Both the position numbers and the translations under genes were made by a program. Under the pieces are notes generated by a model, which saw only the letters and a list, made by a program, of their open reading frames with translations, made no database searches and was not told the origin of the DNA. This document shows, piece by piece, positions 255 to 64,000 of a stretch of DNA of 64,000 bases. The first letter of the stretch is position 1; the number at the start of each line of letters is the position of its first letter. The DNA lies in assembly GCA_001787005.1 (NCBI GenBank), contig MFUV01000010.1, forward strand, positions 73,955-137,954. The letters are read 5' to 3'. Source of the stretch: Candidatus Nomurabacteria bacterium RIFCSPLOWO2_01_FULL_39_18. GTDB taxonomy: Bacteria > Patescibacteriota > Minisyncoccia > Phycocordibacterales > UBA9973.

Positions 255-2012
255 TCAATACACTTCCGCCTGGTAACACTTTTCACAATAAACGATTTCC
301 GGGCGGTCTGGAGAATATGAAGTTTCGAATTCTACTTCGCACTTGCTTCCTCCATGAAAATGATTTGTTTTGCTTCGCCCGTCGTAGCTTTGCGAAGTCG
401 GGTCGCACATACAAGTACGGTGCCAAAGCTTAAAAGGATTTCTGCGTTTTAATCTAGCCTCGTGACGACAATAAAAACATCGTCTTGGAATCGGAATACT
501 CATTTTTCTGTAGAATATTAATTCATTGGGAATGATCTTGTAATTTCTTTTACAATTTATGCAAACTAAAATTTCTTCGAGAATGCTGTCTGTCACTTCG
601 GTGATTGAATCAGGAATATCTTCTGGCAATAGTGTTTCCTTCCCCACCGTCCGTTGTAAATTATTTTGCCAGTTAAATCCTTTTTTGAAAGCTTCTTCCC
701 TAGAAAGTGGAAAGTGTTCTTGTGCTTCTGTTTCATTGTAGCCAAATGGAGATAGTTCTGCAGGATAAAATTCGCCAAATTTGTAACCGTTTTCCTTCTT
801 GTCTTTGTAGGGTATCTTGTTCATCTGCTCTATAATTTTCGGCACAAGTTTTTCGTATTCCTCTTTTGTATATTGTTTATTGAAAATACAATATTTGGCA
901 TTACGAAGACCTATACAACCAAAACAGTATTGGCAATTATGACAATGCTGGGTATATTCAATGTCCTGGCTTTTCCAGGAATAAATCCCGAACAAATTCC
1001 TGTTTGATTGATCGCAAGTAACACTTTCATAACATTCACTAAGTTCTCCTCCTCCCGCCATGTCATATGAATCTTTCATATTAGTACCAAAATCACAATA
1101 TTTACAATTCTCTGAATTTTTGGCAAAAAAAGAATTTTTTACATTCTTACAGCCCGAAATAACATCACCACTAACATTGACATTATGAATTCCATCCACA
1201 AAACGCCTCGGGTATTTTAAAATAAATTCATCGTACTCTTTCTGTGCTCTTTCTACTCCAGAAAATGTATCGAGCTTATAACTTGCTAAAATCTTCTCAT
1301 ATTCTTCTTTACTATATTGCTCGTTTTTAAAACAATACTTTTTACCAACCAATTCAGCACACATAAAGCAATTAGAGCAGTCTTTGCACCGATATAAAAA
1401 TTGTGAGTCAATGCAAGCTATATTTAACCGAGAATATTTAAGTTGATATGAGTTTCGAGCATTAAAACATTCATAAAGCCATTCACTTTTTGATCTGATA
1501 TTGATGCAATCCATCATATCTCGCCCTTCTAGAATAAAATAACTATACATCACATTTTCAATTCTCCACGCAATAAAAACCATGTAGCAATTTTTACCAA
1601 ATGCAAAGTCTTGTGTATATTCACAATTGACACTCCCAATTCCATCATCATTTACCAGCGCCATGTGCGGTACTTTTAATACAAGTTCTTTAAATTGTTC
1701 AAAGAATGACCGCGAGAAATCATAATCTTGCCCATAATCTTTTGGATCCCACTTATCGCTCCACCAGCATTTATTACAATAAATAACGGCACTGGACTCT
1801 TTAGAATAAATAGTTACCACAGATTTTTTACATAAATCACAAGTTCTGTTATATAGAGATGTGTTGTTTTTCCAAGCCCATCTCCTTTGCCTTCTGCAAT
1901 CCGGACAAAATGTCGGCGGAGGAACTTTGATCTTTTCATAAAACCCAAAGTCATCAGGCTCGATGGTGAAGTTTTGTTTACAATTTTGACAATTTTTTGT
2001 TTCGCTTTTCAT
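255..2012 (-). CDS. Cysteine-rich paralog A (585 aa), unknown family
   Basis: The N-terminus (CQNCKQNFTIEPDDFGFYEKIKVPPPTFCPDCRRQRR) and C-terminus (IVYCEKCYQAEVY) are shared with ORFs 2057..3751 and 43057..44766. Internal repeated modules are present: CxxCxxCxxC and KYC(I/F)xN(E/K)QYSKEEYEK. N- and C-terminal Zn-ribbon-like FY-K-I-VP-P-xCPxCRxxRR units occur. Confidence 0.75.
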   Translation of the reverse strand: MKSETKNCQNCKQNFTIEPDDFGFYEKIKVPPPTFCPDCRRQRRWAWKNNTSLYNRTCDLCKKSVVTIYSKESSAVIYCNKCWWSDKWDPKDYGQDYDFSRSFFEQFKELVLKVPHMALVNDDGIGSVNCEYTQDFAFGKNCYMVFIAWRIENVMYSYFILEGRDMMDCINIRSKSEWLYECFNARNSYQLKYSRLNIACIDSQFLYRCKDCSNCFMCAELVGKKYCFKNEQYSKEEYEKILASYKLDTFSGVERAQKEYDEFILKYPRRFVDGIHNVNVSGDVISGCKNVKNSFFAKNSENCKYCDFGTNMKDSYDMAGGGELSECYESVTCDQSNRNLFGIYSWKSQDIEYTQHCHNCQYCFGCIGLRNAKYCIFNKQYTKEEYEKLVPKIIEQMNKIPYKDKKENGYKFGEFYPAELSPFGYNETEAQEHFPLSREEAFKKGFNWQNNLQRTVGKETLLPEDIPDSITEVTDSILEEILVCINCKRNYKIIPNELIFYRKMSIPIPRRCFYCRHEARLKRRNPFKLWHRTCMCDPTSQSYDGRSKTNHFHGGSKCEVEFETSYSPDRPEIVYCEKCYQAEVY

Positions 2013-2056
2013 AATTTTAACATTCTCACATTCTTAAGAATGTCGGAATGTTATCT

Positions 2057-3751
2057 TCAATACACCTCCGCTTGGTAACATTTTTCGCAATACACTATCT
2101 CAGGTTTGTCTGCAGACCAAGAAGTTTTTATGTCTTTGCCACACTTGGCGCATTTGCGATCGTGGATTTCAATAGGATTTAGAAGTTTCGTGCGCGCACG
2201 ATCACGACAAAGTGGACAGTTGTGCGGAATGGGAAGATTGAAACGTCGATAGAAATCAATTTCCATTTTAATTAGCCGATAATTTTTACCGCACTTCTCG
2301 CATTTTAAGATTTCATTGACTATATCATCTTTCACATCTCTTATGTGTTTAGGTATTCTAATCGTTGCATCTTGATAATCTTTGGGTTCAACATCACGCC
2401 AGGCAAAACCTTCTTTTATCGCTTTTCCTTTCCCTAAAGGAAACCATTCCATACTTGTTGATTCATTGTAAGCCCAAGGGGAGATTTCTGAGGGCATCAT
2501 TTCGCCGTATTTATGAATTCTCCCAATTTTATCAATATAAGGAATCTCCATCATTTGTTTACGCAATTTTTCTGTGATCTTTAAATATTCTTCCTTTGAA
2601 TATCTTTTATTTAAAATACAGTACTCCCCTTTTTTAATGCCCACACAGCCAAACATATTATTGGACGAGTGACATCCAAAACAAAATTCGAGATTGCTAG
2701 CGTTGTAGTTCCAAACACTAAATTTTATATTAGACACTTGCAATCCAACCCAGCATGACTCATATATTAATTCTCCTCGCTCACCGAACTCGGTGTAATC
2801 ATAGCAATCAGCAATCGGTCCAGCTTTTAAAAACTGACAGTACCGACAGTCTTTCGCTTTGCGCACCATGTATGAATCGTGGACATTTTTAGAATTGTAA
2901 ACGTACTCCCCCGTTGTATTAACACTGTTTCTATCGTTGAATTGTTTGCGTGGTTGTGTGAGAAGAAATTCCATCGTAGATTTGCGAAATTTCTCCAGAC
3001 TTTCAACAGACCCAAAATCGTATTTTTTAAAAATTTTTTGAAATTCTTCTTTAGAATATGGTTCGTTGAAAATATGGTATTTCTTTTTTGTAAGATTGGC
3101 ACAGCCAACACAATCAGAACATCCTACACAACTACGGCAAAACCACATATTCATAGAACCGACGACATCTTCACAGAAAAAAGTTTGATAGCTGGAGTGG
3201 GTAATAACATTGCCATAGCCCATTTGATCATGGCGTGTCCAAGAACAGTCAATGGAGTCTTTAATGTCAGCAACTTCATTTAAATAAGCACAGTTTTCTG
3301 CATAATCAATTCTAAAACATAAATAACAATCTTTGCATTCTGCGGCAGCATTGCAATAATCACTCCGAACCATTGACGCATGTTCAGTATAGAGAGCAGG
3401 CAACGGTACGTCGCGCATAAGTTCACCAAACTGTTCTAGAAAAGATCGTGACCAATCAATTTCTCTGCCATGTTCCTTAGGATCCCACTTATCACTCCAC
3501 CAAATATCCTGACGATAGACTTTATAGGGTGAATCTTTGTGATGCGTCGTGATAACCTCCTCGCCAGTAAAATCGCATTTTCTTTTATATAAAATTTGAT
3601 AGCCCTGCCAAGAAAGCCTGCGCTTAAGTCGACATTCTGGACACCAAGTCGGTGGTGGCACTTTGATTTTCTCATAAAATCCAAAATCCGAAGCGTCTAT
3701 TGTAAAAGAATTTTTACAATTTTGACAAACCCTAGTTTCTTCCATATGCAT
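2057..3751 (-). CDS. Cysteine-rich paralog B (564 aa), tandem with paralog A
   Basis: Same architecture as paralog A: N-terminal CQNCKNSFTIDASDFGFYEKIKVPPPTWCPECRLKRR, internal CRSCVGCSDCVGC and YSKEEY modules, C-terminal IVYCEKCYQAEVY. Confidence 0.75.
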   Translation of the reverse strand: MHMEETRVCQNCKNSFTIDASDFGFYEKIKVPPPTWCPECRLKRRLSWQGYQILYKRKCDFTGEEVITTHHKDSPYKVYRQDIWWSDKWDPKEHGREIDWSRSFLEQFGELMRDVPLPALYTEHASMVRSDYCNAAAECKDCYLCFRIDYAENCAYLNEVADIKDSIDCSWTRHDQMGYGNVITHSSYQTFFCEDVVGSMNMWFCRSCVGCSDCVGCANLTKKKYHIFNEPYSKEEFQKIFKKYDFGSVESLEKFRKSTMEFLLTQPRKQFNDRNSVNTTGEYVYNSKNVHDSYMVRKAKDCRYCQFLKAGPIADCYDYTEFGERGELIYESCWVGLQVSNIKFSVWNYNASNLEFCFGCHSSNNMFGCVGIKKGEYCILNKRYSKEEYLKITEKLRKQMMEIPYIDKIGRIHKYGEMMPSEISPWAYNESTSMEWFPLGKGKAIKEGFAWRDVEPKDYQDATIRIPKHIRDVKDDIVNEILKCEKCGKNYRLIKMEIDFYRRFNLPIPHNCPLCRDRARTKLLNPIEIHDRKCAKCGKDIKTSWSADKPEIVYCEKCYQAEVY

Positions 3752-3797
3752 TTATATTATCACTAATCAGAGCGGAGTCCAGCACCAAGCTCCGGCT

Positions 3798-4691
3798 TTG
3801 GTGCTGCGGATCTGGCTCATTTTTTTGATTAAAATACATTGGTGTGCTATTGTTTTCAGGATGAATCCCCCAGAAATTACAATGAATAAAGACAATTCTT
3901 TACAATCCATTCCTCGCATAATTTTCTTTCTTTTGATGATTACATTGGTTGTTTATTCCTCGTCTTTAAGCATAAGATACAGACGAGAAGAACAAATCAA
4001 AAAAATTGAATCTGAAAAAAAAATCTATTTGACTGGAAAATTTGAGCCGAGCGAGCGAGAAGATTTTGTTTTGATTTCACCGGAAAATGCTTTCGGTGCG
4101 AACGATATGTATTTAAGGAAAGAAGCTTACGGAACATTTATTTTGATGCGCGAAGCCGCCAAAGAAGATGGAATTGATTTAAAGATAGCTTCAGCTACTA
4201 GGAATTTTGATTATCAAAAAAATATCTGGGATGAAAAATGGGCTGAGCTTGAAGTTGTTGATGGAAAAAATATAGATCAAGAAATTCCCGACGGATTAAG
4301 GCGATTTAAAAAAATATTAGAATTCAGTTCGGCTCCTGGCACATCCAGACACCATTGGGGCAGTGATATTGATATAAATAGAGTCAATCCTCTTTATGCT
4401 GGCAGCGCTAGAGATGAAATAGAAAGAGAAAAAATATATGCCTGGCTTGTTAAAAATGCCGCTCAATTTGGATTTTGCCAAACCTACACTCTCAAAAATG
4501 AAGCTAGAAAAACTGGGTACAAAGAAGAAAGGTGGCATTGGTCTTACCTGCCGCTCTCCAAAGCGCTGACGCAAGAATACAAAATTTTAGTAAAAAATGA
4601 AGATATCAAAGGATTTTCGGGCGACGAATTCGTTTCCACTTATGATCTCGTCAACAACTATGTGCTAGCCATCAACCCCGATTGTATCTAG
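3798..4691 (+). CDS. Peptidase M15 (VanY/D-Ala-D-Ala carboxypeptidase-like) with N-terminal TM segment
   Basis: SRHHWGSDIDIN matches the M15 S-x-H-x-x-G-x-A/D-x-D zinc-ligand motif, and the C-terminal EERWHWSY resembles the EPWHxRY motif. The true start is probably the Met at about 3882 (MNKDNSLQ...). Confidence 0.6.
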   Translation: MVLRIWLIFLIKIHWCAIVFRMNPPEITMNKDNSLQSIPRIIFFLLMITLVVYSSSLSIRYRREEQIKKIESEKKIYLTGKFEPSEREDFVLISPENAFGANDMYLRKEAYGTFILMREAAKEDGIDLKIASATRNFDYQKNIWDEKWAELEVVDGKNIDQEIPDGLRRFKKILEFSSAPGTSRHHWGSDIDINRVNPLYAGSARDEIEREKIYAWLVKNAAQFGFCQTYTLKNEARKTGYKEERWHWSYLPLSKALTQEYKILVKNEDIKGFSGDEFVSTYDLVNNYVLAINPDCI

Positions 4692-17730: not shown

Positions 17731-18567
17731 TTATTGAGTAAGAATTGAAGGATTGTTATATCTTGATATTCTGGCTCGTTTTACTTCTTCTTTTTTGTCT
17801 TTTAATTGATTCGTATCAGATGCCCTAACCAATTCACCCGCTAGCTGTTCTGCTTTAATTTTACTAGATTTATTTCTTCCTAGAATTGCGTAGCCCATAG
17901 CTATTGTAATTTTAAAAGAAAAAGGTTCGCCCGAAAAACTCTCGTCCTCATTTATCTTTACGCCTTTAACAATCAAATTGGTATTTACTTTATCTTGAAT
18001 TCTTGTAAAAATTTTTTTCAACTTTACATCATCTAAATTACCTCTAATCGACAATACCATCCGGAATTCATCGCCATGGGGATGAAATACTAGATCCCCT
18101 CCAAGTTCTTTTACTGCTTCCTGCAACCTTTGGGCGACAGCTTTGATTGCTTGATCGCCCACAGGATGACCATGCCTATCATTTATTACCTTAAAATCAT
18201 CTATGTCCGCAGCAATTGCCATGATGGAGTCTGGAGTAGACTCGCTCTTGGGATTCTGATTTAATTGCTTAATCAATGCAGGCAGTTTTCTTTCTAAACC
18301 AAGACGGTTGTAGCAACCAGTAAAGGTATCAATGCCTTGGTTCGTTTCTAGAGAAGAAATTATTCCTTCTTGCTTTCTCGCAAGCACAGTAATTAATTCA
18401 ATATATTGATCTTTTGTTATTGCTTCTCTCGCGAGAGCGCCACTTATCATATTCACCGTGCAAACACCTCTTGCCAACAAATCCTTTAAATCTTTAAGGG
18501 TCTTCGGGTTCTCCATTATTGCTGTTTTTTCTGGAGTATATGGTGGCTTTCTTGGTATCCATTCCAT
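17731..18567 (-). CDS. GGDEF-domain protein (signature reads HGDEF)
   Basis: GCYNRLGLERKL, IAADIDDFKVINDRHGHPVGDQAI and HPHGDEFRMVL are GGDEF-domain landmarks. The first Gly of GG(D/E)EF is replaced by His. Confidence 0.7.
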   Translation of the reverse strand: MEWIPRKPPYTPEKTAIMENPKTLKDLKDLLARGVCTVNMISGALAREAITKDQYIELITVLARKQEGIISSLETNQGIDTFTGCYNRLGLERKLPALIKQLNQNPKSESTPDSIMAIAADIDDFKVINDRHGHPVGDQAIKAVAQRLQEAVKELGGDLVFHPHGDEFRMVLSIRGNLDDVKLKKIFTRIQDKVNTNLIVKGVKINEDESFSGEPFSFKITIAMGYAILGRNKSSKIKAEQLAGELVRASDTNQLKDKKEEVKRARISRYNNPSILTQ

Positions 18568-26471: not shown

Positions 26472-29390
26472 TTACATTACTATGTTGATCAATCTATTTT
26501 TTATATAAATAAATTTTTTAATTTCTTTGCCCGCTGTATGCCTTGCGATAACCTCGTTGGCAAGAGATTTTTTTTTTACACTTTCTTCATTTTCGTCTGC
26601 CTGTACCATAATCTCCGCCCTGACTTTGCCATTTATCTGCACAACAATTTTGACCTCATCATCTTTAATTTTTTCCTTATCATATTCCGGCCATGAAGAG
26701 AGATGAACGGATTTCTTTTCTCCAAGCATACTCCAAAGCTCTTCAGTGATATGCGGCGCAAAAGGAGAAAGAATCTGTAGAAACTTCTTGAGGTCTTCTA
26801 GGCTGACGCCGCTCTTTTCCATTTCATTTAGAAGTATCATAAGTGAGGACACTGCAGTATTAAAGCGCATACTATCAATGTCTTCACTGACTTTCTTGAT
26901 GGTTTTATGAAGAAGTTTTGCAAGCGAAGCCGGAGAAGATTTCTGAGTCGCGTAAGTCCCACCCGGTACTCCGGGAAGGGTAAAGCGCGAAGAAATCTTC
27001 TCCGGCGAAGCTATTTTATGTCCAATCTTCCAAACTCTTTCTATAAACCTCCTCGGCCCCATTAGGCTGTCTGTGCTCCATGACACTGATTGATCAAATG
27101 GCCCCATAAACATTTCATATAAGCGGAGTGTATCCGCGCCGTATGTAGAAACTATACTATCTGGATTTATAATATTTCCAAACCTTTTCGACATTTTCCT
27201 GCCATCGGAAGCAATAATCAGCCCTACGTGTTGAAGTTTCTTAAAAGGCTCTTTGTTCACCACCACGCCTATGTCGTAAAGGAATTTGTGCCAGAACCTC
27301 GCATATATCAAGTGTCTGGTCGCATGTTCTGCTCCGCCAACATATAAATCCACCTCATTCCAATATTTTTCTATATTTTTATCCACCAGAGCTTTGTTAT
27401 TGTCTGGGTCCATGTAGCGAAGATAGTACCAAGAAGAACCGGCCCATTGGGGCATAGTATTGCTCTCTCTTCTTAAAACTTTTTGGCCAACTTTCACATT
27501 TATCCAGTTTGGCACGTTCGCTAAAGGCGATTCTGCGGTTCCAGTCGGCTTATAAGACTTAACTTTTGGCAATTTCACTGGCAAATCTTTTTCTTTAACT
27601 GGGATAACTTTAGTGCCGTCGCGCAAAACCGGTATCGGTTCGCCCCAATAACGTTGGCGAGAAAATACCCAGTCGTGAAGTTTGTAAGTTACTTTTCTAT
27701 AACCAAATCCTTTTTTCACAATGTAATCAATGATATCTTCGCGTACTTCCCCCCATTCCCTGCCCTTGAATTCTACTGGTTCGGTAAGAATGCCATTTTT
27801 GATGATTGGTTGATTAATTCCGAGATACCTCTTCCAAATCACTTTCATATCTTCTCTGCTTACAAAATCCAAAACTTCTTTTTCGGAAACCCAATGCATA
27901 TCGTAAAAATCTTTTTGTTTCTGTTCTATCTCTCCTTGTTCATTGTTTTGGAGTTTAAAGTAAAGAGGAGTAAAATGCGCAAAACGGTTTTGCTTTTTTA
28001 TATCCTGCCAAAATTTGGAATGAACTACCCCACCTAATTGTTTTACAAATTTTATATTTTTATATCCCGTTTCTTCAGTTATCTCTCGGATTCCGGTTTC
28101 AACTGGATCTTCCCCATCTTCCACCCCTCCTACTACAAAACCCCGCCAATCTGTATTTTTTACGCTATGACAAAGAAATTTATTCTCTGACCAGTGCTTG
28201 ATAATGCAAACAACTGCATTTCTTTCGATAAAAGGTTCGCTCTCTCTCGCCTTATCTAAGCCTTCACTTCTCACCACCAAGGGCTCGACAACTTCTCGAA
28301 GAGGAATGTTATATTTTTTCGCGAAGGCAAAATCTCGCTCGTCATGCACACTTGAATTAACAATACCCGTCCCATAGTCCGCAATAACAAAAGTTGCAAT
28401 CCAAACAGGCAAATCGCCTGTGCCGAAAGGATTGTCCACATATCGCCCAGTAAAAATTCCTTCAATTTCTTTTTCTGTTTCAAACCCTTTTTTTATTTTT
28501 CTTTGTTTGAATTTCTCAACAAAATCTAAAACGGGTTCCTCATATTTTGTTCTCTTTATTAACTTTTTTACCAACGGATGCTCCGGCGCAATAACACAAA
28601 AGGTCTGTGCCATGAAAGTTTGCGGAATAGAATCATAGGCTTCAATTTTAATTCCTAAGTCCTTTACCTTCTGTTTGTACATGATGCCCTCGCTTCGTCC
28701 GATCCAATTTCTTTGACTTTCCTTTATGGATTCCGGCCAGTCTAGGGCGTCTAAATCCGCCAAGAGTCTGTCAGCATAGTCAGTAATCTTCAAAACCCAT
28801 TGGCGAATAGGCTTTTTTTCAACGACGGCTCCGCACCTTTCGCACTTTCCGTCTTCCACATCTTCATTGGCCAGGATAGTCATATCCCTAGGACACCAAT
28901 TCACCGGTTCGTTAGACTCATAAGCAAATCCACGTTCTAGCAATTTTAAAAATATCCACTGAGTCCATTTGTAAAATTTCGGATCTGAAGTATTCACCTC
29001 TCGAGACCAATCATAATCAAATCCGATAATTTCTAATTGTTTTTTAAATCGAGCAATATTTTTTGCCACCGACACGACGGGATTGGTTTTTGTTTTAATG
29101 GCATAATTTTCAGTAGGCAATCCGAAAGAATCAAACCCCATGGGGTGCAGAACATTAAACCCCTGCATTCTTTTTTTCCTAGAGACTACGTCTGTGGCAA
29201 TGTAGCCCTTCGGATGGCCAACATGGATGCCTTCCCCCGAGACATAGGGAAACATATCTAAAATATAGAATTTCCCTTGCCCCGCCGTAGCTTTATGCGA
29301 AGGTGGGTTTTTTGTTTGGTAGATTTTTTTCTTAGCCCATTCTTTCTGCCATTTTTTCTCAATCTTCTTGTGGTCGTATTCCTTCTTCAT
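26472..29390 (-). CDS. leuS: Leucyl-tRNA synthetase with an inserted NUDIX hydrolase domain and a palindromic insertion
   Basis: HIGH region FPYVSGEGIHVGHPKGY. KMSKS motif KMSKRFGN. Editing-domain landmarks GTGIVNSSVHDERDFAFAKKYNIP. The 972-aa length exceeds typical bacterial LeuS because of a Nudix insert of about 155 aa. Confidence 0.9.
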   Translation of the reverse strand: MKKEYDHKKIEKKWQKEWAKKKIYQTKNPPSHKATAGQGKFYILDMFPYVSGEGIHVGHPKGYIATDVVSRKKRMQGFNVLHPMGFDSFGLPTENYAIKTKTNPVVSVAKNIARFKKQLEIIGFDYDWSREVNTSDPKFYKWTQWIFLKLLERGFAYESNEPVNWCPRDMTILANEDVEDGKCERCGAVVEKKPIRQWVLKITDYADRLLADLDALDWPESIKESQRNWIGRSEGIMYKQKVKDLGIKIEAYDSIPQTFMAQTFCVIAPEHPLVKKLIKRTKYEEPVLDFVEKFKQRKIKKGFETEKEIEGIFTGRYVDNPFGTGDLPVWIATFVIADYGTGIVNSSVHDERDFAFAKKYNIPLREVVEPLVVRSEGLDKARESEPFIERNAVVCIIKHWSENKFLCHSVKNTDWRGFVVGGVEDGEDPVETGIREITEETGYKNIKFVKQLGGVVHSKFWQDIKKQNRFAHFTPLYFKLQNNEQGEIEQKQKDFYDMHWVSEKEVLDFVSREDMKVIWKRYLGINQPIIKNGILTEPVEFKGREWGEVREDIIDYIVKKGFGYRKVTYKLHDWVFSRQRYWGEPIPVLRDGTKVIPVKEKDLPVKLPKVKSYKPTGTAESPLANVPNWINVKVGQKVLRRESNTMPQWAGSSWYYLRYMDPDNNKALVDKNIEKYWNEVDLYVGGAEHATRHLIYARFWHKFLYDIGVVVNKEPFKKLQHVGLIIASDGRKMSKRFGNIINPDSIVSTYGADTLRLYEMFMGPFDQSVSWSTDSLMGPRRFIERVWKIGHKIASPEKISSRFTLPGVPGGTYATQKSSPASLAKLLHKTIKKVSEDIDSMRFNTAVSSLMILLNEMEKSGVSLEDLKKFLQILSPFAPHITEELWSMLGEKKSVHLSSWPEYDKEKIKDDEVKIVVQINGKVRAEIMVQADENEESVKKKSLANEVIARHTAGKEIKKFIYIKNRLINIVM
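26930..27005. repeat. Palindromic element in-frame in leuS: perfect 15-bp arms ccggagaagatttct / agaaatcttctccgg with inner hairpin cccgg-tact-ccggg
   Basis: Arms at 26930..26944 and 26991..27005 are exact reverse complements. Encodes the ...LPGVPGGTYATQKSSPASLAK... segment. Confidence 0.75.
27810..28286 (-). other. NUDIX hydrolase domain embedded in LeuS (about aa 369-527)
   Basis: Complete Nudix box GGVEDGEDPVETGIREITEETGY (Gx5Ex7REUxEExGU). It is inserted between the end of the CP1 editing domain (KKYNIPLREVV) and the conserved linker that precedes KLHDWVFSRQRYWGEPIP. Confidence 0.85.
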
Positions 29391-43056: not shown

Positions 43057-44766
43057 TTAATACACCTCCTGCTGATAGCATTTTTCACAATATATTATGG
43101 GTGCGTATTTTTCGGGATATACCGTCTCTACCTCTGTGCTGCATTTAGAGCAATTGCGGTTGATAATTTGCAAAGGTGGACGCTTATCCATCCGCCGTAT
43201 ATGCCTGATATCAAAACACACTCGCGGTAGTGGTAAATTCATTCTTCTGTAAAAAGATAATTCATTTTCAGTAATTCTATAGGCTCCTACAGAGTTGGGG
43301 TTGTCTTTTTCGGCACACTCAATAACCTCGTTTAAAATCGAATCACTTACCTCCTTGATGGTTTCAGGCAATTCCGAGGCCTTAAGGGTGACTTTGTAAT
43401 TTTTCTTACCTTTATCTATCCAGCGATAACCATTTTTAATTGCCTCTTCTTTAGTGAGGGGATAATAATAATTCGCAATTGTTTCATTGTAAGCAAAATC
43501 AGAAAAATTGGCCGGAAAGTTCTCTCCAAATCGATACTCCAGACCTCTATTATCTATATAAGGTACTTTTTTCATAGAATCAATGATTTCATTTTTAAGC
43601 TTTTCATACTCTTCCTTGGAATATTCTTTATTTAGAATGGAATATTTCCCTTTTTTCAAACCCACACAACCGAAGCAATCATGAGCGCCTGGACAATTAT
43701 TGCAGTAGTATAAGTCGTGCGCACCCATCCAGCACTGATTACAAAAATAAAGGCGAGCAATATCAATGCCACAATTCTGGGATTCGTAGATTTGCTCCGC
43801 CTTATTGCCCCATTCAAAATAATCCATACAATCCTCAGCGTTGAAAACCATAAATAGGTACTTACCGTCTCTTACGCTTTCGCAGTCGAAAGATTCCTTA
43901 ACGTTTTTACTATTCATAAACCAGTTACCTGAAACACTCTCAGACTTAATAGACATTATGGCCCTCTGTGGAAATTTCTTCCTAAATTCTTCAAATTCAA
44001 CCTTCATTTTTTCAATTCCAAGAAAAGTATCTAGTCTCATTTCTTCCAGCTTTTTGAAATATTCCTCTTTTGAATACTTTTTGTTCCAAATACAGTACTC
44101 CGCATTAACCAAATTCACGCAACCCACACAATTCGAAGAATTTCTGCATGCGTAAATAAAAGAACAATCACGGGAATCCTTACTCTCTTGGCCAAATTTC
44201 ACATTGTAGCAGTTCGCGCAATTAACACACTCATAACACAGCTCGCATTCGAAAAGCCATGAGCCATCACAACAATCAAGAATATGTTTTTTGCCGTTGT
44301 AAAGATATAAAGAATTTTCTGGATAAGAACTACGAAAAACCATATAAGAATTTTTAGGATCGGTGACGCGATGAGCATAGGGGCTGTTTATGGCAAACCC
44401 TTGCCGAACTATAGACATTCTAGGCACTTTATTTTGAAGTTCTAAAAATTGTTCGAAGAAAGATCGGCTTGGGTCATAGTCCATGCCGTAGGAATAGGGG
44501 TCCCAAACATCGGAGTACCAAATATCAGTTTCGTAAACAGGAAACTGGGTGTCCTCCGAATACATGCTAAAAATCTCTTTACCGGAAAAACTGCATTTTC
44601 TTTTATATAAAACAGTCTCGCTTGTATGTATAAAGCGCCGAAGCAGTCTACATCCTGGGCAAAAAGTCGGAGGAGGTACTTTTATTTTTTTATAAAATCC
44701 GAAATCATCAACTTCAATAGTAAAGTCCTTTTTGCAGTTTTGACAGACCTTGGTTTCAGCTTCCAT
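43057..44766 (-). CDS. Cysteine-rich paralog C (569 aa)
   Basis: Same N-terminal (CQNCKKDFTIEVDDFGFYKKIKVPPPTFCPGCRLLRR) and C-terminal (IIYCEKCYQQEVY) ends and internal YSKEEY/CxxC modules as ORFs 255..2012 and 2057..3751. Confidence 0.75.
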   Translation of the reverse strand: MEAETKVCQNCKKDFTIEVDDFGFYKKIKVPPPTFCPGCRLLRRFIHTSETVLYKRKCSFSGKEIFSMYSEDTQFPVYETDIWYSDVWDPYSYGMDYDPSRSFFEQFLELQNKVPRMSIVRQGFAINSPYAHRVTDPKNSYMVFRSSYPENSLYLYNGKKHILDCCDGSWLFECELCYECVNCANCYNVKFGQESKDSRDCSFIYACRNSSNCVGCVNLVNAEYCIWNKKYSKEEYFKKLEEMRLDTFLGIEKMKVEFEEFRKKFPQRAIMSIKSESVSGNWFMNSKNVKESFDCESVRDGKYLFMVFNAEDCMDYFEWGNKAEQIYESQNCGIDIARLYFCNQCWMGAHDLYYCNNCPGAHDCFGCVGLKKGKYSILNKEYSKEEYEKLKNEIIDSMKKVPYIDNRGLEYRFGENFPANFSDFAYNETIANYYYPLTKEEAIKNGYRWIDKGKKNYKVTLKASELPETIKEVSDSILNEVIECAEKDNPNSVGAYRITENELSFYRRMNLPLPRVCFDIRHIRRMDKRPPLQIINRNCSKCSTEVETVYPEKYAPIIYCEKCYQQEVY

Positions 44767-45024
44767 AAGAGCATTATACTCGTTTTAGTGGCTTAAAACC
44801 ATAATTTACACACCTTCAGGCTCCGGCGCTGCGGATTTTAAAATCCTCCCTTGTTTATCCCGACTTATAATATTCCGCTGATAACGAGGTGCTGGAAGCT
44901 TTATCGTAAATTCGAACGGGACTTGTTTTGTGGCAATATTAGTGTTAAAAAGTTGGGTTGCATTCGTGGTATTCCGACGGAAATACTCATAATTGGCAGA
45001 TTATATCATAAGATAGAGCAAAAT

Positions 45025-58960: not shown

Positions 58961-58986
58961 ACCCTTGGTAAATTAGTAAATTAGTG
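58950..58986. repeat. REP-like family B copy (taccaaggtgaacccttggta) overlapping the RAYT-2 stop, followed by a direct repeat aaattagtaaattagt
   Basis: Same stem as the upstream copies. Located between RAYT-2 and the end of the giant surface-protein gene. Confidence 0.7.
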
Positions 58987-61900
58987 AAGAAGCCAATTCC
59001 AAAGTCTCTGTAGCCAATCCGGGGCGGCATTGATAACTGAAGCTCCTCCGCCACCGCCACCGCCACCCTGAGAAGACAAGCTACCAGCATAGAAATCATC
59101 ACCTCTAGTGTCCGTGAGGTTGCCATATCCAACCAATCCCGGTCGCCCGCTTGAATATGTAGAATCAGACACATTCGTTACTGTTGTGCCATTTTGTTTG
59201 AGAGTCAAATTAGTTCCAGAAATTTCCAAACGCAACACATCGCCTGGAGAAAACGCAGTGCCAGTATAGTGCGTAGTCGGAGTACCCGCATTCCATTCAA
59301 TTATTTTTACCGCGGTATTGCTATCTGAATAAGCTCCGTACCCGCTTTGGTCAGACTGAAGTCTGACTCCCCCACCTATATAGCCACCAGAAGCCAAAGC
59401 TCCCAGGGTAATTTCTATATATTGATTATCATTGAAACTGCCAATATTCCATTTCGCCATTGTGTCTGTGGCACTGGCATTACTGTGAATGGCATTGGTG
59501 TTTATAGCAAAGGCGGAACTTCCGCCAAGCAATGCCCAATTGGAATCATATGTGGTCAAAGCTGTGGCATCGCTGCCCGTAAATGCTTGGGGCAATGTTC
59601 CCCCGCCACCGCCAGAGATTTCCCCGCCGCTTCCGCTACCACTGTTTCCGCCACCGCTCTGAGGAGTTCCTGCTCCTGAAACATTTTCCGCGCCGGGAGC
59701 AACAATACCCTGTAAAACAAATGCCCAACAACTGCCGTTGTTGCCGCCGTTTAGGATTGTTATGCTTTTGGGAACTGACTGCGTACTTGGAGCGCAGGCG
59801 GAATTTCGCACAACTATATAGCTCAAACTAATGGTGGCGCCCGCATCAATATAAACCGTCCATTGACTGGTCCCATCTATAGAATCCAAAACAATATTAC
59901 CACTTTCCGAAGAACCAGTCAGAGTTATATCATTGTAAAAGCCGAAGGTCGAGCCTTGATTGAAACTGATTTTTTTGTTAGGACTGGTGGATGTAAAATT
60001 ATGAAAATCCGTCGAACTGGTTCCTTGGAAGTTGATGTTTTCAACTTGTACACCATTTACTGAGGCGGGCGCAACCACCACCGTGCTAGTTCCTTTATTA
60101 AATGTGCCGTCGTTTGTAAAAGTGGCTCCGACATCAGAACCCGCGATAGTGATAGTGGAATTGTTGGCAGTCAAGGTTCCTTTGCTTGTAATTGTGATAG
60201 AGCCAACGGTGAGGGGGAAATTGCTCGCGGCGGAAGTATTTAAAATATCGGCATTGGTAGAACCAGTGTTACCGATAGTCAAGGCATTTGTAGTTGTAGT
60301 CGCCGCTCCTAGAGTAAAAGTAGAAGCCGCATTACTATCAGAAGTAGTGCCAACGCCAAGATTATAATAATCAGCTGGTGTCACGGTGATACTACCAGCT
60401 CCAGTGGGATAAGTATAATTAAACGTAGAAGTATTCGTAGGGCAAGTAGCAAATGAACAAATCGTGCTAGAAGCGTTGAAAACCAGCGGGGTGCCGTTGG
60501 CTGATAAGCTCCAGACAATATCTCCGGGATCTAATACGGTTGCGGCGCCATCACCTGCTTTACCAATGTTGAGTGTTCCAGAAATAGTAACATTGCCCGT
60601 ACCGCCTACTTGGGTGGTAATCGTTGGAGTAACGGCAGTTCTGCCGAAAGTCAGGTTAACAAAATTCCAATCATTAGAACCAGTAGGTCCGAAATTTTGA
60701 TTGGCGCCCACCAGCTGTTCAAAAGTCCCGGCAGTGGTTAAGTTAACAGTTCCAGTTCCTGTAACATCCCCCGCTCCGGTTATCGTACCGTTGGCAGTTC
60801 CAGACAGAGTACCCGTTACAACCAAGCTACCGGTCTGAGTCCAAGCCCCCGTTCCTGTGGTAGCTGTCGCGCCAGTTGAAATAGTAGTCATCCCACCAAC
60901 CACAATGGCAGAAGAAGGCATAGTATAAGTACCTGTTCCACCCAAGGTAAGATCATTAAATGTTGTGGCCGTAACATTCGCAGTGGTGCCAGAATATGTA
61001 ACCGTACTGCCAGTTACTGTAAATGTATTGGATCCAGACAAGGTAAGTGGTGAAGAAGTTCCTGTTAATTCTAAAGTATCGCCACTAATATTTAAATTCT
61101 GTGAATCGTCAACTGTTATGGAAGTGGCTTTAACATTCGATGAGGTTGAAAGGGTGGTCGCACCGACATTGGCGGAAACTTGCACAATTCCGATACTTTT
61201 TGATGTTACGTTATCATCCGTCCAAGTTTGAGTACCGCCACCCCCTTTGGCGAATACAACAATTCCAGCGCCGGTAGTAATTTCTGCCCCAGAAGTAATG
61301 ACCAAATTCCCTCGCAAGGTTGTATTCGTAGCTGGCATGGTATAAGTGCCGGTGCCGCCTAAAGTTAAATTATTATATGTGGTAGCGGTAACATTAGAAG
61401 TGGTGCCGGTATATTCCACTGTCGAGGTACTCGCGGTAAATGTGCCTCCTGCCGTGATATTGAGAGGAGTAGCACCGCTTCCGGCGGATAGGGTCAAAGT
61501 TCTAGTTGATAAATCTAAAATATCTTTGAAAGAACCATCGGAGGCATGACCAATGTTTATGCCTCCCGCAGCTGTAGCGTCCCCAGCCAGGGTATATGTG
61601 ACTGCCGTGCTGTCGGATGTCGAGCCGACACCCAGATTATTATAAGTAGCGACCGCAACATTGGTCGCAGTCGTGCCGATGTAATTCATCGTATGCGTGC
61701 CACTGCCTGTAAAAGTTCCGGAATTTACGAACGGCGTACCTGATGCGGAAAGAGTGATGCTGCCGGAGCTTGGAGCAATAGTGCAAGTCGCGCCATTAGT
61801 CAAAGTTCCCGCCACCGTGAAAGAAGTGTTGGCAGTAACAGAAGTAGATGAACAAGCAGTGGTCAAATTTTGAAATGTCAGAGTGCCGGAATTTGTAATC

Positions 61901-64000
61901 GCTCCGCCGCCGTTCACCGTGATCGTGCCGGCCCCCGGTGTGAAAGTTCCCGTAACATTGAAAGTCCCGCCCACTATCGCAGTCTGCGTGCCACTACTGA
62001 TTGTTCCGCTAATTGTTAAATTATTAAACGTAGTATTGGCAATGGTAGGACTCGAAGCGCTTGAATAATCCACCGTGCTTCCTGTTACCGTAAAGGTATT
62101 GCTTCCGGATAAAGTCAGGCCGGTCCCAGTCAATGTTAAAGTATCAGAACTGATGTCAAGATTCTGGCTGGTATCAACTGTGACAGATGAGGCTTTAACA
62201 TTCGAAGAAGTTGAAAGAGTCGTGGGCGTGCCATTTACTGAAACTTGAACCGTTCCAATATCTTGCACTCCAGCTGTACTATCCGTCCAAGTTTGCGTCC
62301 CACCTTTGGCAAAGATAATCGTCCCGGCTCCGGTGGTTACAGTTGTGTTTACGCCGATAGCAAGATTCCCGCGCAAAGTTAAATTAGACCCAGGAAGTGT
62401 GTATGTCGCGGAACTGCTAGGCGCAAATGTCAGATTGTCGTAGGTTGCGGCCGTAATGTTCGTGGCGCTCGTCCCAGTATAGGATATGGTATTGCCGGCT
62501 GTTGGAGTAAAGGTTCCAGTTTTAACAAAAGGCGTCCCCGAACCAGAGAGAGTAATGGTCCCCGTGCCAGTGGCAAGAGTCGCGCCACTGGCAATAGTCA
62601 AAACTCCAGCCACTCCGAAGCTCGGGTTGTTCGCAGTGCCTGTCGCTCCGGCATTGGTACTATCGCCAATGGTAAGATTCCCGGCAATATCGCTAAGAGT
62701 TCCCGGTAAAACTAAGGGCGTAACATCAGCTGGTTTTAAATTCAAGTGTCCATAAGTGGCGTTCGTAATTGTGAGACCATTGGTTTGAAAATAAGAGACC
62801 GTGCTAGTGGCCCCATAAGTATAAGTAGAGAAGCTTGCCGGATATGCCGAGGCTCCGGACATTTCAAAAAATGCGCCGTTGGAAACTGAAAAGGTGTCCG
62901 ACGCTCCATTGCCGGTAATAGAAAATCCTCCGTTTTTCAAAGTACCTAGAGAGACGGAAAGAGCTGTGGCGCTAGCTTTGTCTGTCTCAAGATTAGCTCC
63001 AAGCGTCCACTCTCCATTCGAACCATTAAAATTTAAAGCGCTAAAATCAGAAGTTCCGGATAAAGTTCCGCCCAAAGTATTGCCTGTGTCCGTCGCGGTA
63101 AAGGCGACCGTCCCGCCATTGTTGGCAAAAGTTCCAGAGTTTGAATAATTGCCGCTCAACGTGAGCGTACCGGAAGTCGAAGTAAATGTGCCGGAAGTAA
63201 TAGCGAGGTCTACCCCGCTTATTGCTCCGCTTCCGCCGTTAAATGTTCCAGTTTGAGTTATATTTCCGCTGGCTGTGATTATCCCAGTGGTTGTTTGGGT
63301 AAGTGTTCCAGTGATAACTGCATTGTCCGTAGTCAGAGTTTCATCCGAGTCAACGGTCAAAGTGTCTCCGGATTCGACTTGAATAGTTTCATCCGAGTAA
63401 GAATTGGAACAACCCTGGACATCGAGCGCTGTAACCGAACCAGCGTACATAATATCTTCATCAGCATTGCAATCATACAGATCTAGATCCGCCACTGTCA
63501 GACTTTTGTCGTCCACCGAACCGACCGATAGAACATTTGTATTGAGAACAATTCCAGTCATGTCTCCTGTGCCGTCATATTTTGCCACAGCGGTCGCTTC
63601 CGAAGAATCGGCAATGTCTCCGTCTCCATCGGTCAGGAAAACCGTGATGGCTTGGTCGGACTGCACGCTTACGCTTGAAATGGACCAAATGCCACCACTG
63701 GTCGTGCCGGTTTGAGCCGCTAGCGATCCATTGACTGCCACTCGCACCGTTAGAGAGTCAGCCGCATTGGTAGTGCCGGAAACCGTAGCGGCCGCTGGAA
63801 AGATCCAGCAAGTTCCATTATTGCCTCCATTAGTGGAAGTCGCATCGAGAGTCACATTCTCCGAAGTAGAGCAAGCTCCGTAAGCAATACTGGCATAGGT
63901 AACGGATGATGGCTGAGCCACGGCAAAATCCGCCAGCCACGGATTGGCCCCGTCGTCCGAGGTGATGGTAATTAAATTGCCCGATGTCCCGGTGATTGTA
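58981..64000 (-). CDS. Giant Thr/Gly/Ser-rich beta-repeat surface protein (adhesin-like), 5'-partial: continues beyond the window end
   Basis: At least 1670 aa. Repeated about 75-aa units (…TLSTSSNVKASS(V/I)TVDxSQNL(D/N)ISxDTL(T/E)LTG…SGSNTFTVTGSTV…). Gly-rich tail GGGGGGGGASVINAAPDWLQRLWNWLLH. The reading frame stays open upstream of the GTG at 63921 to position 64000. Confidence 0.7.
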   Translation of the reverse strand, partial: TITGTSGNLITITSDDGANPWLADFAVAQPSSVTYASIAYGACSTSENVTLDATSTNGGNNGTCWIFPAAATVSGTTNAADSLTVRVAVNGSLAAQTGTTSGGIWSISSVSVQSDQAITVFLTDGDGDIADSSEATAVAKYDGTGDMTGIVLNTNVLSVGSVDDKSLTVADLDLYDCNADEDIMYAGSVTALDVQGCSNSYSDETIQVESGDTLTVDSDETLTTDNAVITGTLTQTTTGIITASGNITQTGTFNGGSGAISGVDLAITSGTFTSTSGTLTLSGNYSNSGTFANNGGTVAFTATDTGNTLGGTLSGTSDFSALNFNGSNGEWTLGANLETDKASATALSVSLGTLKNGGFSITGNGASDTFSVSNGAFFEMSGASAYPASFSTYTYGATSTVSYFQTNGLTITNATYGHLNLKPADVTPLVLPGTLSDIAGNLTIGDSTNAGATGTANNPSFGVAGVLTIASGATLATGTGTITLSGSGTPFVKTGTFTPTAGNTISYTGTSATNITAATYDNLTFAPSSSATYTLPGSNLTLRGNLAIGVNTTVTTGAGTIIFAKGGTQTWTDSTAGVQDIGTVQVSVNGTPTTLSTSSNVKASSVTVDTSQNLDISSDTLTLTGTGLTLSGSNTFTVTGSTVDYSSASSPTIANTTFNNLTISGTISSGTQTAIVGGTFNVTGTFTPGAGTITVNGGGAITNSGTLTFQNLTTACSSTSVTANTSFTVAGTLTNGATCTIAPSSGSITLSASGTPFVNSGTFTGSGTHTMNYIGTTATNVAVATYNNLGVGSTSDSTAVTYTLAGDATAAGGINIGHASDGSFKDILDLSTRTLTLSAGSGATPLNITAGGTFTASTSTVEYTGTTSNVTATTYNNLTLGGTGTYTMPATNTTLRGNLVITSGAEITTGAGIVVFAKGGGGTQTWTDDNVTSKSIGIVQVSANVGATTLSTSSNVKATSITVDDSQNLNISGDTLELTGTSSPLTLSGSNTFTVTGSTVTYSGTTANVTATTFNDLTLGGTGTYTMPSSAIVVGGMTTISTGATATTGTGAWTQTGSLVVTGTLSGTANGTITGAGDVTGTGTVNLTTAGTFEQLVGANQNFGPTGSNDWNFVNLTFGRTAVTPTITTQVGGTGNVTISGTLNIGKAGDGAATVLDPGDIVWSLSANGTPLVFNASSTICSFATCPTNTSTFNYTYPTGAGSITVTPADYYNLGVGTTSDSNAASTFTLGAATTTTNALTIGNTGSTNADILNTSAASNFPLTVGSITITSKGTLTANNSTITIAGSDVGATFTNDGTFNKGTSTVVVAPASVNGVQVENINFQGTSSTDFHNFTSTSPNKKISFNQGSTFGFYNDITLTGSSESGNIVLDSIDGTSQWTVYIDAGATISLSYIVVRNSACAPSTQSVPKSITILNGGNNGSCWAFVLQGIVAPGAENVSGAGTPQSGGGNSGSGSGGEISGGGGGTLPQAFTGSDATALTTYDSNWALLGGSSAFAINTNAIHSNASATDTMAKWNIGSFNDNQYIEITLGALASGGYIGGGVRLQSDQSGYGAYSDSNTAVKIIEWNAGTPTTHYTGTAFSPGDVLRLEISGTNLTLKQNGTTVTNVSDSTYSSGRPGLVGYGNLTDTRGDDFYAGSLSSQGGGGGGGGASVINAAPDWLQRLWNWLLH

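Follow-up and report, generated by a model that had tools for sequence, protein, structure and literature searches.

A cysteine-rich protein family of Parcubacteria-type bacteria with twin beta-solenoids, terminal finger pairs and VirD4-like ATPase gene neighbors

Introduction

What are the three large cysteine-rich proteins encoded within a 64,000-nucleotide stretch of the Candidatus Nomurabacteria bacterium RIFCSPLOWO2_01_FULL_39_18 genome (contig MFUV01000010.1, positions 73,955 to 137,954; hereafter the window), and with which partners might they act? An earlier note, made from the letters of this DNA, had described a tandem gene pair and a third copy of no recognized family and had suggested that they represent an expanding family, possibly binding metals or nucleic acids. 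Here, we report that the three proteins belong to a new protein family whose fold types are already known and which is neither an artefact nor explained by a curated model. Our analysis gives good support for cytoplasmic proteins composed of twin beta-solenoids with a LIM-like Cys4 finger pair at each end, and for an ancient origin of their multi-paralogue gene arrays. Based on gene neighborhood, we further propose, tentatively, that the family acts together with VirD4-like ATPases.

Results

The adjacent pair of open reading frames (ORFs) and the third ORF were found where the earlier note had placed them, all on the minus strand:

255-2012, minus strand: paralogue A, 585 aa, 37 Cys, locus tag A3A95_03905.
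2057-3751, minus strand: paralogue B, 564 aa, 33 Cys, first gene of the B-A tandem.
43057-44766, minus strand: paralogue C, 569 aa, 32 Cys, locus tag A3A95_04120.

A gap of 44 bp separates B from A, which follows it downstream in the same orientation. At 100% identity, B corresponds to hypothetical protein A3A95_03910 of Candidatus Nomurabacteria bacterium RIFCSPLOWO2_01_FULL_39_18, which begins two codons later in the NCBI model (562 aa), and all three proteins are listed as 'uncharacterized' in UniRef. The proposed paralogy was borne out by tblastn, with mutual identities of 40-44% and E values of 1e-126 to 1e-137; no fourth copy was detected in the 64-kb window by the same method. Cysteine accounts for 5.6-6.3% of residues in A, B and C compared with a mean of 0.60% in the 45 other ORFs of the window. 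The previous estimate of 40-50 Cys per protein was too high, as the counts above show, while the ca. tenfold enrichment over the window background stands. The N-termini of all three proteins are polar, with a maximum 19-residue Kyte-Doolittle hydropathy of 0.7-1.0. Hydropathy and N-terminal composition indicated neither a signal peptide nor a transmembrane (TM) segment in A, B or C, in agreement with the lack of a signal peptide stated before.

Each protein can be divided into six segments, arranged in the order double finger module, WWSDxWDP linker, solenoid unit M1, solenoid unit M2, acidic connector (403-470) and second double finger module. Residue numbers are those of B unless stated otherwise; window coordinates of the equivalent segments in A and C are given in brackets:

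3503-3751, minus strand: N-terminal double finger module, B 1-83 (A 1767-2012; C 44521-44766). N-finger 1 of B (C9, C12, C37, C40) is of treble-clef type and is followed by a basic helix, CRxxRR; N-finger 2 is degenerate in B (C59 only) and intact in A (C58, C61, C79, C82).
3398-3502, minus strand: highly conserved linker/N-cap, WWSDxWDP...SRxFxEQFxEL..VP, B 84-118 (A 1662-1766; C 44416-44520).
2957-3397, minus strand: solenoid unit M1, B 119-265 (A 1215-1661; C 43975-44415), with ca. 9 coils of 12 residues (130-237), a Cys/Ser ladder and a near-invariant C211-x2-C214-x2-C217, closed by a YxIFNxxYSKEEY strand-helix cap and a helix.
2546-2956, minus strand: solenoid unit M2, a duplicate of M1, B 266-402 (A 816-1214; C 43567-43974), with coils at 282-389, C360, C369, C378 and a YCILNKxYSKEEY cap.
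2342-2545, minus strand: acidic connector, B 403-470 (A 603-815; C 43357-43566), with the conserved motif PYxDxxGxxYxYGExxPxExSPxxYNE(S/T).
2060-2341, minus strand: C-terminal double finger module, B 471-564 (A 258-602; C 43060-43356). In B, finger 1 (C484, C487, C512, C515) is basic and finger 2 (C534, C537, C555, C558) ends in EIVYCEKCYQAEVY.

Profile-profile comparison revealed two nested internal duplications, one of the finger modules and one of M1/M2. The N-terminal CQNCK...FTIE.DDFGFY.KIKVPPPT.CP.CR..RR unit was found in A, B and C, and its repetition near the C-terminus, which had been read from the sequence, was recovered as an alignment of residues 5-82 with 480-557 (probability 98.6%, E 7e-16). 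M1 (ca. 115-245) aligned with M2 (ca. 266-397) in hhalign with a probability of 99.5% and an E value of 4e-22. The other signatures named in the earlier note were likewise present, namely the I(V/I)YCEKCYQ(A/Q)EVY C-terminal ends as well as CxxCxxCxxC runs and Y[CSH][IF]xN[KE]xY[ST]KEE[YF] modules, two of each per protein. An AlphaFold2 model of full-length B, based on 93 sequences, reached a predicted local distance difference test score (pLDDT) of 84 and a predicted template modeling score of 0.85, with pLDDT values above 90 for the fingers and the connector and of 65-77 for M1 and M2. Net charges of +2 and +4 make the finger-1 segments basic, while the solenoids and the connector are acidic. 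Each protein is, with good support, a rigid pseudo-symmetric rod whose solenoid cores are lined by a ladder of Cys, Ser and small hydrophobic residues, and the first finger of each pair presents a conserved Arg-rich helix.

The solenoid assignment is well supported independently of AlphaFold2 by Cys spacing and profile autocorrelation, both derived from a family alignment of 247 sequences. Almost all distances between central cysteines are multiples of three, with distances of 3, 6, 9, 12, 15 and 18 occurring at 2.5-5.3 times the frequency in shuffled sequences and other distances at 0.01-0.5 times. Autocorrelation of column profiles gave M1 peaks at 12, 24 and 36 and an M2 peak at 12, whereas no peaks were seen in control regions. 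In the model, beta-bridges assigned by DSSP are also spaced by 12 residues (190/202/214/226 and 343/355/366/378). Taken together, the 12-residue spacing in autocorrelation, bridges and Cys lattice points to about nine 12-residue coils per unit, with a coil consensus of roughly x-[FY]-[FG]-[SC]-x-[DG]-C-x-x-[CS]-x-[DN] and a Y-C-I-x-N-K-x-Y-S-K-E-E-Y cap. A 9-residue repeat was also considered and was given up for the 12-residue period after comparison of autocorrelation and DSSP results.

Most central cysteines are conserved in 20-80% of the aligned sequences, and ladder positions lacking Cys are filled by Ser (36%), Val, Leu, Ala, Thr or Ile. Variable central cysteines are weakly correlated (phi at most 0.38), without covarying pairs or quartets, and the number of Cys is even in 50% of family proteins. 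Given their lattice positions, their replacement by Ser, Val, Leu, Ala or Thr and the lack of covariation, the variable central cysteines behave as buried ladder positions, neither as disulfide pairs nor as discrete clusters. Fe-S or multi-metal clusters in the CxxCxxCxxC runs were rejected as the main explanation because of partial conservation, the replacement pattern, the lack of covariation and the absence of a profile match; specifically, Pfam and NCBIfam yielded no match to Fer4 or related Fe-S families. The idea of Fe-S or Zn clusters in these runs is for the most part not supported. Exceptions to the variability of central cysteines are the near-invariant C211-x2-C214-x2-C217 in the last M1 coils as well as C369 and C378 in M2. 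Obligate disulfides and secretion are disfavored by the even-Cys fraction of 50%, the lack of covarying Cys pairs and the lack of a signal peptide.

The terminal modules behave differently from the solenoids. Twelve terminal cysteines are 93-100% conserved (C9, C12, C37, C40; C484, C487, C512, C515; C534, C537, C555, C558). The ligands of N-finger 2 (C59, C62, C80, C83) are present in 57 and absent in ca. 82 of 139 non-redundant members and are lost as a unit (phi 0.99-1.00), with A having this finger and B and C being without it. All-or-none loss of this kind marks a genuine site of metal binding. In the model, the finger sites consist of a beta-hairpin knuckle and a helix N-terminus, so that both the geometry and the joint conservation of ligands are those of generic Zn(Cys)4 fingers. 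Together with sub-threshold treble-clef matches, these findings uphold the earlier description of the terminal units as zinc-finger-like. In C, two ligands of C-finger 1 are gone, and A is the only one of the three proteins with all four terminal Cys4 fingers intact. Based on this inventory, the predicted number of terminal Zn sites is four in A, three in B and two in C. The last finger of A (window 258-437, minus strand; A residues 526-585) additionally contains a 21-residue insertion, CMCDPTSQSYDGRSKTNHFHGG..., with extra Cys and His, which is not found in B or C.

Consistent with the earlier note, no known domain could be assigned, as searches of Pfam, NCBIfam, PADLOC and PDB sequences returned nothing above threshold and no match at all for the central ca. 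350 residues. Closest are two families of ca. 40-residue 'probable treble clef' domains of unknown function, which share the CxxC...CxxC pattern of N-finger 1 and of the last C-terminal finger and leave ca. 480 residues uncovered. For zf_Tbcl (PF13451), whose profile spans ca. 48 residues, B scored 20.0 bits (residues 6-45) against a gathering threshold of 24, and A and C gave no match at E <= 1. Eleven of 27 diverse relatives matched at E < 0.1 (best E 1e-4), and a few homologues carry a precomputed PF13451 call. On this sequence evidence, finger 1, and only finger 1, looks like a borderline, distant zf_Tbcl member. For zf_Tbcl_2 (PF23477; TIGR04272), a domain with the pattern CxxC-x17-CxxC, B scored 18.8 bits against 27 in Pfam and 16 against 36 in NCBIfam (residues 529-561), with 15 of 27 relatives at E < 0.1 (best E 7e-7). 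The last finger is probably a divergent zf_Tbcl_2 member, with the remainder of the protein uncovered. The tandem finger pair in each terminal module further resembles LIM domains (CRP1/CRP2, PINCH), and the last finger has weak, insignificant profile matches to CRP/PINCH LIM domains (E 0.016-0.3; no PDB profile match below E 0.016). LIM domains are, however, defined by C2HC and C2C(C/H/D) ligands whereas those of the family are all Cys, and no more than two of the 27 members matched Pfam LIM (lowest E value 0.033).

With respect to the solenoids, a Foldseek search of the PDB with the model, as suggested previously, gave no match (best E 3.3). By fold, the nearest matches are narrow beta-helices that contain Cys and are extracellular. 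The insect and plant ice-binding beta-helices CfAFP (1M8N) and LpIRI (3ULT) show a resemblance in fold class, without homology, at 4-7% identity. The coil of the antifreeze protein TmAFP is also 12 residues long. None of the hallmarks of insect or plant antifreeze beta-helices, i.e. T-x-T ladder, secretion and intra-coil disulfides, was found, and the proteins described here are cytoplasmic, zinc-finger-flanked and from CPR (Candidate Phyla Radiation) bacteria. Hexapeptide-repeat acyltransferases and gamma-carbonic anhydrases, left-handed beta-helices whose coils are made of three [LIV]-G-x4 hexapeptides, differ in period (18, i.e. 6x3, compared with 12 here) and in their catalytic residues, which the family lacks; there was no Pfam Hexapep match. 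PADLOC returned nothing relevant to anti-phage defense, PHROGs contained only phrog_15341 (unknown function; E 3.6e-6 to 6e-3, against the solenoid), and no homologues were found in GenBank phages or IMG/VR contigs. A search of a paper library on the zf_Tbcl/TIGR accessions and on Cys-rich CPR families found nothing on proteins of this family.

The family is large. Searching with B yielded 4,975 clusters (90% identity) at E <= 1e-3, all annotated as 'hypothetical', and an exhaustive profile search of 1.84 billion representatives (50% identity) gave 5,121 at E <= 1e-3 and 2,132 at E <= 1e-30. The best 150 are nearly all 545-600 aa long and matched end to end, indicating a uniform family architecture. 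GTDB species genomes contain at least 545 loci. Named genomes are from Nomura-, Staskawicz-, Jorgensen-, Giovannoni-, Lipton- and Sungii-bacteria, Paceibacterota and Minisyncoccia, while records labeled 'uncultured Saccharibacteria' or 'Gammaproteobacteria' are automatically named bins. Confinement of the family to ultra-small, Parcubacteria-type CPR bacteria (GTDB Paceibacteria) is thus well supported in the data examined. In a sample of 80 fetched loci seeded with the Cys-rich family, we counted 181 family copies, with two or more in 44 loci and same-strand arrays of up to seven genes in 14 kb (median gaps ca. 20 bp). Tandem copies are 29-60% identical (median 43%), and in 108 of 116 cases a closer relative was found in another genome than in the copy's own array. 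B-type orthologues are 52-84% identical across many Parcubacteria lineages. As the nearest relatives reside in other genomes and orthologues are conserved, the paralogy is old and maintained; judged from these sequence comparisons, the family is composed of old subfamilies that have been maintained by purifying selection. Recent gene-family expansion is ruled out by the same identities, and the 'expanding family' of the earlier note has to be abandoned.

Outside this genome, the commonest neighbor is a P-loop ATPase matching Pfam TrwB_AAD_bind, DUF87, T4SS-DNA_transf and TraG-D_C, i.e. a VirD4-like protein. It was found in 26 of the 80 Cys-rich-seeded loci, immediately adjacent and on the same strand in 18. 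Of its two forms, the long one carries a TM segment at the N-terminus and the short one is soluble. The short form is strikingly conserved, its identity being 63-91% between 20 species and 83-95% across 80 metagenome loci. These 80 loci, seeded with the short ATPase, served as a reciprocal test. Here, the Cys-rich family was present in 64 of 80, and among the 41 loci with at least 2.5 kb on both sides it was present in 37, within 2.5 kb upstream in 32. The canonical gene order is dnaK, long ATPase, one to four Cys-rich genes, short ATPase, dnaJ, membrane protein and, on the opposite strand, cysS. An example is locus L099 with DnaK, long ATPase, two Cys-rich proteins, short ATPase, DnaJ, membrane protein and cysteinyl-tRNA synthetase (block in L084-L163 and L003-L078). 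Overall, 30 of the 80 ATPase-seeded loci have Cys-rich genes between long and short ATPase, 57 have a Cys-rich gene directly before the short ATPase, and 67 have the short ATPase followed by dnaJ. Block-embedded copies are mostly ca. 36-44% identical to A, B and C and therefore appear to be other subfamilies; further family copies may lie outside the window in the RIFCSPLOWO2_01_FULL_39_18 genome. Housekeeping genes related to metals or cysteine were also seen near arrays, with CutA1 in 5 loci (e.g., L034 3653-3958), Nramp in 3 (L074 905-2209) and cysteinyl-tRNA synthetase in 4 (L050 9140-10528; 42 of 80 in the ATPase-seeded sample). Their recurrence is probably mere synteny. A functional tie to the scpAB, vanY or mraY-ftsW-murG genes found near A and B was rejected since this context recurs in only 2-4 of 80 loci.

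B and C share a GC-rich element upstream of their start codons:

3789-3811, minus strand: ATCCGCAGC-N6-GCCGGAGC, 38-60 nt upstream of the B ATG.
44820-44836, minus strand: counterpart ATCCGCAGCGCCGGAGC, 54-70 nt upstream of the C ATG, without spacer (ATCCGCAGC N0 GCCGGAGC).

The 9-mer ATCCGCAGC has exactly two sites in the window (0.36 expected), located 52-60 nt before the B ATG and 62-70 nt before the C ATG, and is followed by GCCGGAGC in both cases. Boxes resembling -10 elements lie 5-7 nt before both start codons, so that the leaders may be very short. The B copy of the element forms a perfect hairpin of 9 bp, which the C copy does not conserve. It is possible that the element represents a common operator of the B-A pair and C. 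In 160 loci of other genomes, no family gene was preceded by the combined element, and when k-mers were searched for an upstream motif common to the family, nothing emerged except the coding ends of tandem copies lying upstream. The octamer GCCGGAGC by itself has seven sites in the window (3789, 28580, 33035, 40755, 44820, 61762, 62645) compared with 0.74 expected from shuffles, none of which reached seven.

Three other features of the window were recorded. A leucyl-tRNA synthetase (26472-29390, minus strand, 972 aa) carries a NUDIX domain inserted after the editing domain (residues 405-508, E 6e-11). A 1,646-aa ORF (58981-63921, minus strand) without a Pfam match at E 1e-4 lies within the only higher-GC stretch of the window (0.48 compared with ca. 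0.39). Finally, this reduced genome encodes a GGDEF-domain protein (diguanylate cyclase-like; 17731-18567, minus strand).

Discussion

As for function, we tentatively favor, at somewhat less than even chances, that the family acts with an exapted 'orphan' VirD4-like (type IV coupling protein (T4CP)/HerA-FtsK superfamily) ATPase pair, one partner long and membrane-anchored and the other short and soluble, as adaptors or clients. Docking of a partner, be it the ATPase or a protein or nucleic acid that is its cargo, would fall to the terminal finger modules, and specificity would stem from paralogue-specific solenoid surfaces. In this genome, the B-A pair and C have moved out of the dnaK...dnaJ block and appear to be co-regulated through the shared upstream element. 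A survey of Patescibacteria (2025) counted 5,713 VirD4-like T4CPs in 2,918 genomes, 148 of them near virB4, and found relaxases to be almost absent, leading its authors to suggest that the T4CP may be exapted for other functions (PMC12102498). Most related loci have the family genes embedded between genes for two VirD4-like ATPases, an arrangement reminiscent of accessory or substrate proteins of VirD4-type type IV secretion systems (T4SS). However, no other T4SS genes could be recognized among the recurrent neighbor families of the loci examined, there is no relaxase, the family has no similarity to known T4SS substrates or adaptors, and Patescibacteria T4CPs are mostly distant from virB4 (PMC12102498).

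Several points speak against a role alongside these ATPases. The link is drawn solely from gene neighborhood, and the loci seeded with the ATPase come from close relatives, with ATPases that are 83-95% identical, so that some of the synteny may reflect inheritance and not selection. In the Cys-rich-seeded loci, ATPases are present in only one third. No T4CP, dnaK or dnaJ was found in the 64-kb window, and A and B are flanked here by scpAB/vanY and mraY-ftsW-murG. A stoichiometric adaptor would not usually be encoded in one to seven copies per array. Further, Zn binding at the terminal Cys4 sites is predicted from sequence, and the C211/C214/C217 triad could be a further metal or redox site.

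A more far-reaching version, which we regard as conceivable but doubtful, is that the arrays and the two flanking VirD4-like ATPases constitute an undescribed Parcubacteria-specific machine, independent of the VirB4 type IV secretion system. It might be an ATP-driven translocation or assembly system, with the solenoid proteins serving as cargo adaptors or polymerizing subunits.

Other explanations do without an ATPase partnership or assign it a different meaning. The proteins might be stand-alone nucleic-acid-binding proteins (DNA/RNA regulators or nucleoid/RNA scaffolds) whose Arg-rich fingers touch DNA or RNA, the ATPase link being mere synteny, which we judge rather unlikely. In finger 1, the second CxxC is followed by a conserved basic helix (CPxCRxxRR; CxxCRxxAR), which, like the charge of this finger (+2, +4), would fit such a role, but the whole proteins are near-neutral to acidic (median isoelectric point 6.4), including acidic solenoids and connector. 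One source labels a homologue as RPC12/RpoP-like, yet no DNA/RNA-binding family was matched. While the genes lie away from ATPases and beside scpAB in this genome, the ATPase synteny is strong in the reciprocal test.

The canonical location inside the dnaK...dnaJ block would also suit stress or redox proteins of the Hsp70 system, such as zinc-finger holdases or thiol-rich redox sensors or buffers (cf. Hsp33 and the DnaJ zinc-finger domain), or proteins for metal handling. We consider this unlikely to a greater degree still. The Cys content is 10-fold over background, but most central cysteines can be replaced by Ser, Val or Leu and are thus buried. CutA1, Nramp and cysteinyl-tRNA synthetase are occasional neighbors, although as ordinary housekeeping genes of the syntenic block. 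Against the near-invariant CxxCxxC triad in M1 stand the lack of similarity to Hsp33, the DnaJ CR domain, ferredoxins and metallothioneins and the absence of a CIRCE heat-shock operator in the window.

Export of the proteins as disulfide-stabilized beta-helices comparable to the Cys-rich antifreeze beta-helices of insects, forming surface or host-contact fibers of the episymbiont and leaving the cell via the membrane-anchored VirD4-like ATPase without a signal peptide, is improbable: extracellular, Cys-containing narrow beta-helices are the top fold matches, the genes sit between a TM-anchored and a soluble T4CP-like ATPase and multi-paralogue arrays are typical of surface structures, but there is no signal peptide or TM segment, no even-Cys bias (50% even), no covarying pair of solenoid cysteines and no T-x-T ice-binding ladder. 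Moreover, Cys4 sites that are kept or lost as a whole agree with zinc fingers in the cytoplasm, the orthologues show strong conservation (52-84%) and no diversification, and a T4CP by itself is not known to form an export channel.

Conclusions

CPR bacterial genomes total less than 1 Mb, and the family described here occupies ca. 5 kb of the window and up to ca. 12 kb in relatives. Despite orthologue identities of 52-84% across genera, it has no name, no Pfam or NCBIfam model and no solved relative, and its architecture represents a concrete target for structure and metal analysis. If the arrays and their flanking ATPases were indeed a machine of their own, this would explain the approximately two highly conserved 'orphan' coupling proteins per Patescibacteria genome. 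Beyond this, the tight reciprocal linkage makes a question from the T4SS literature, namely the role of exapted coupling proteins, accessible to testing, as the hypothesis now names a partner family.

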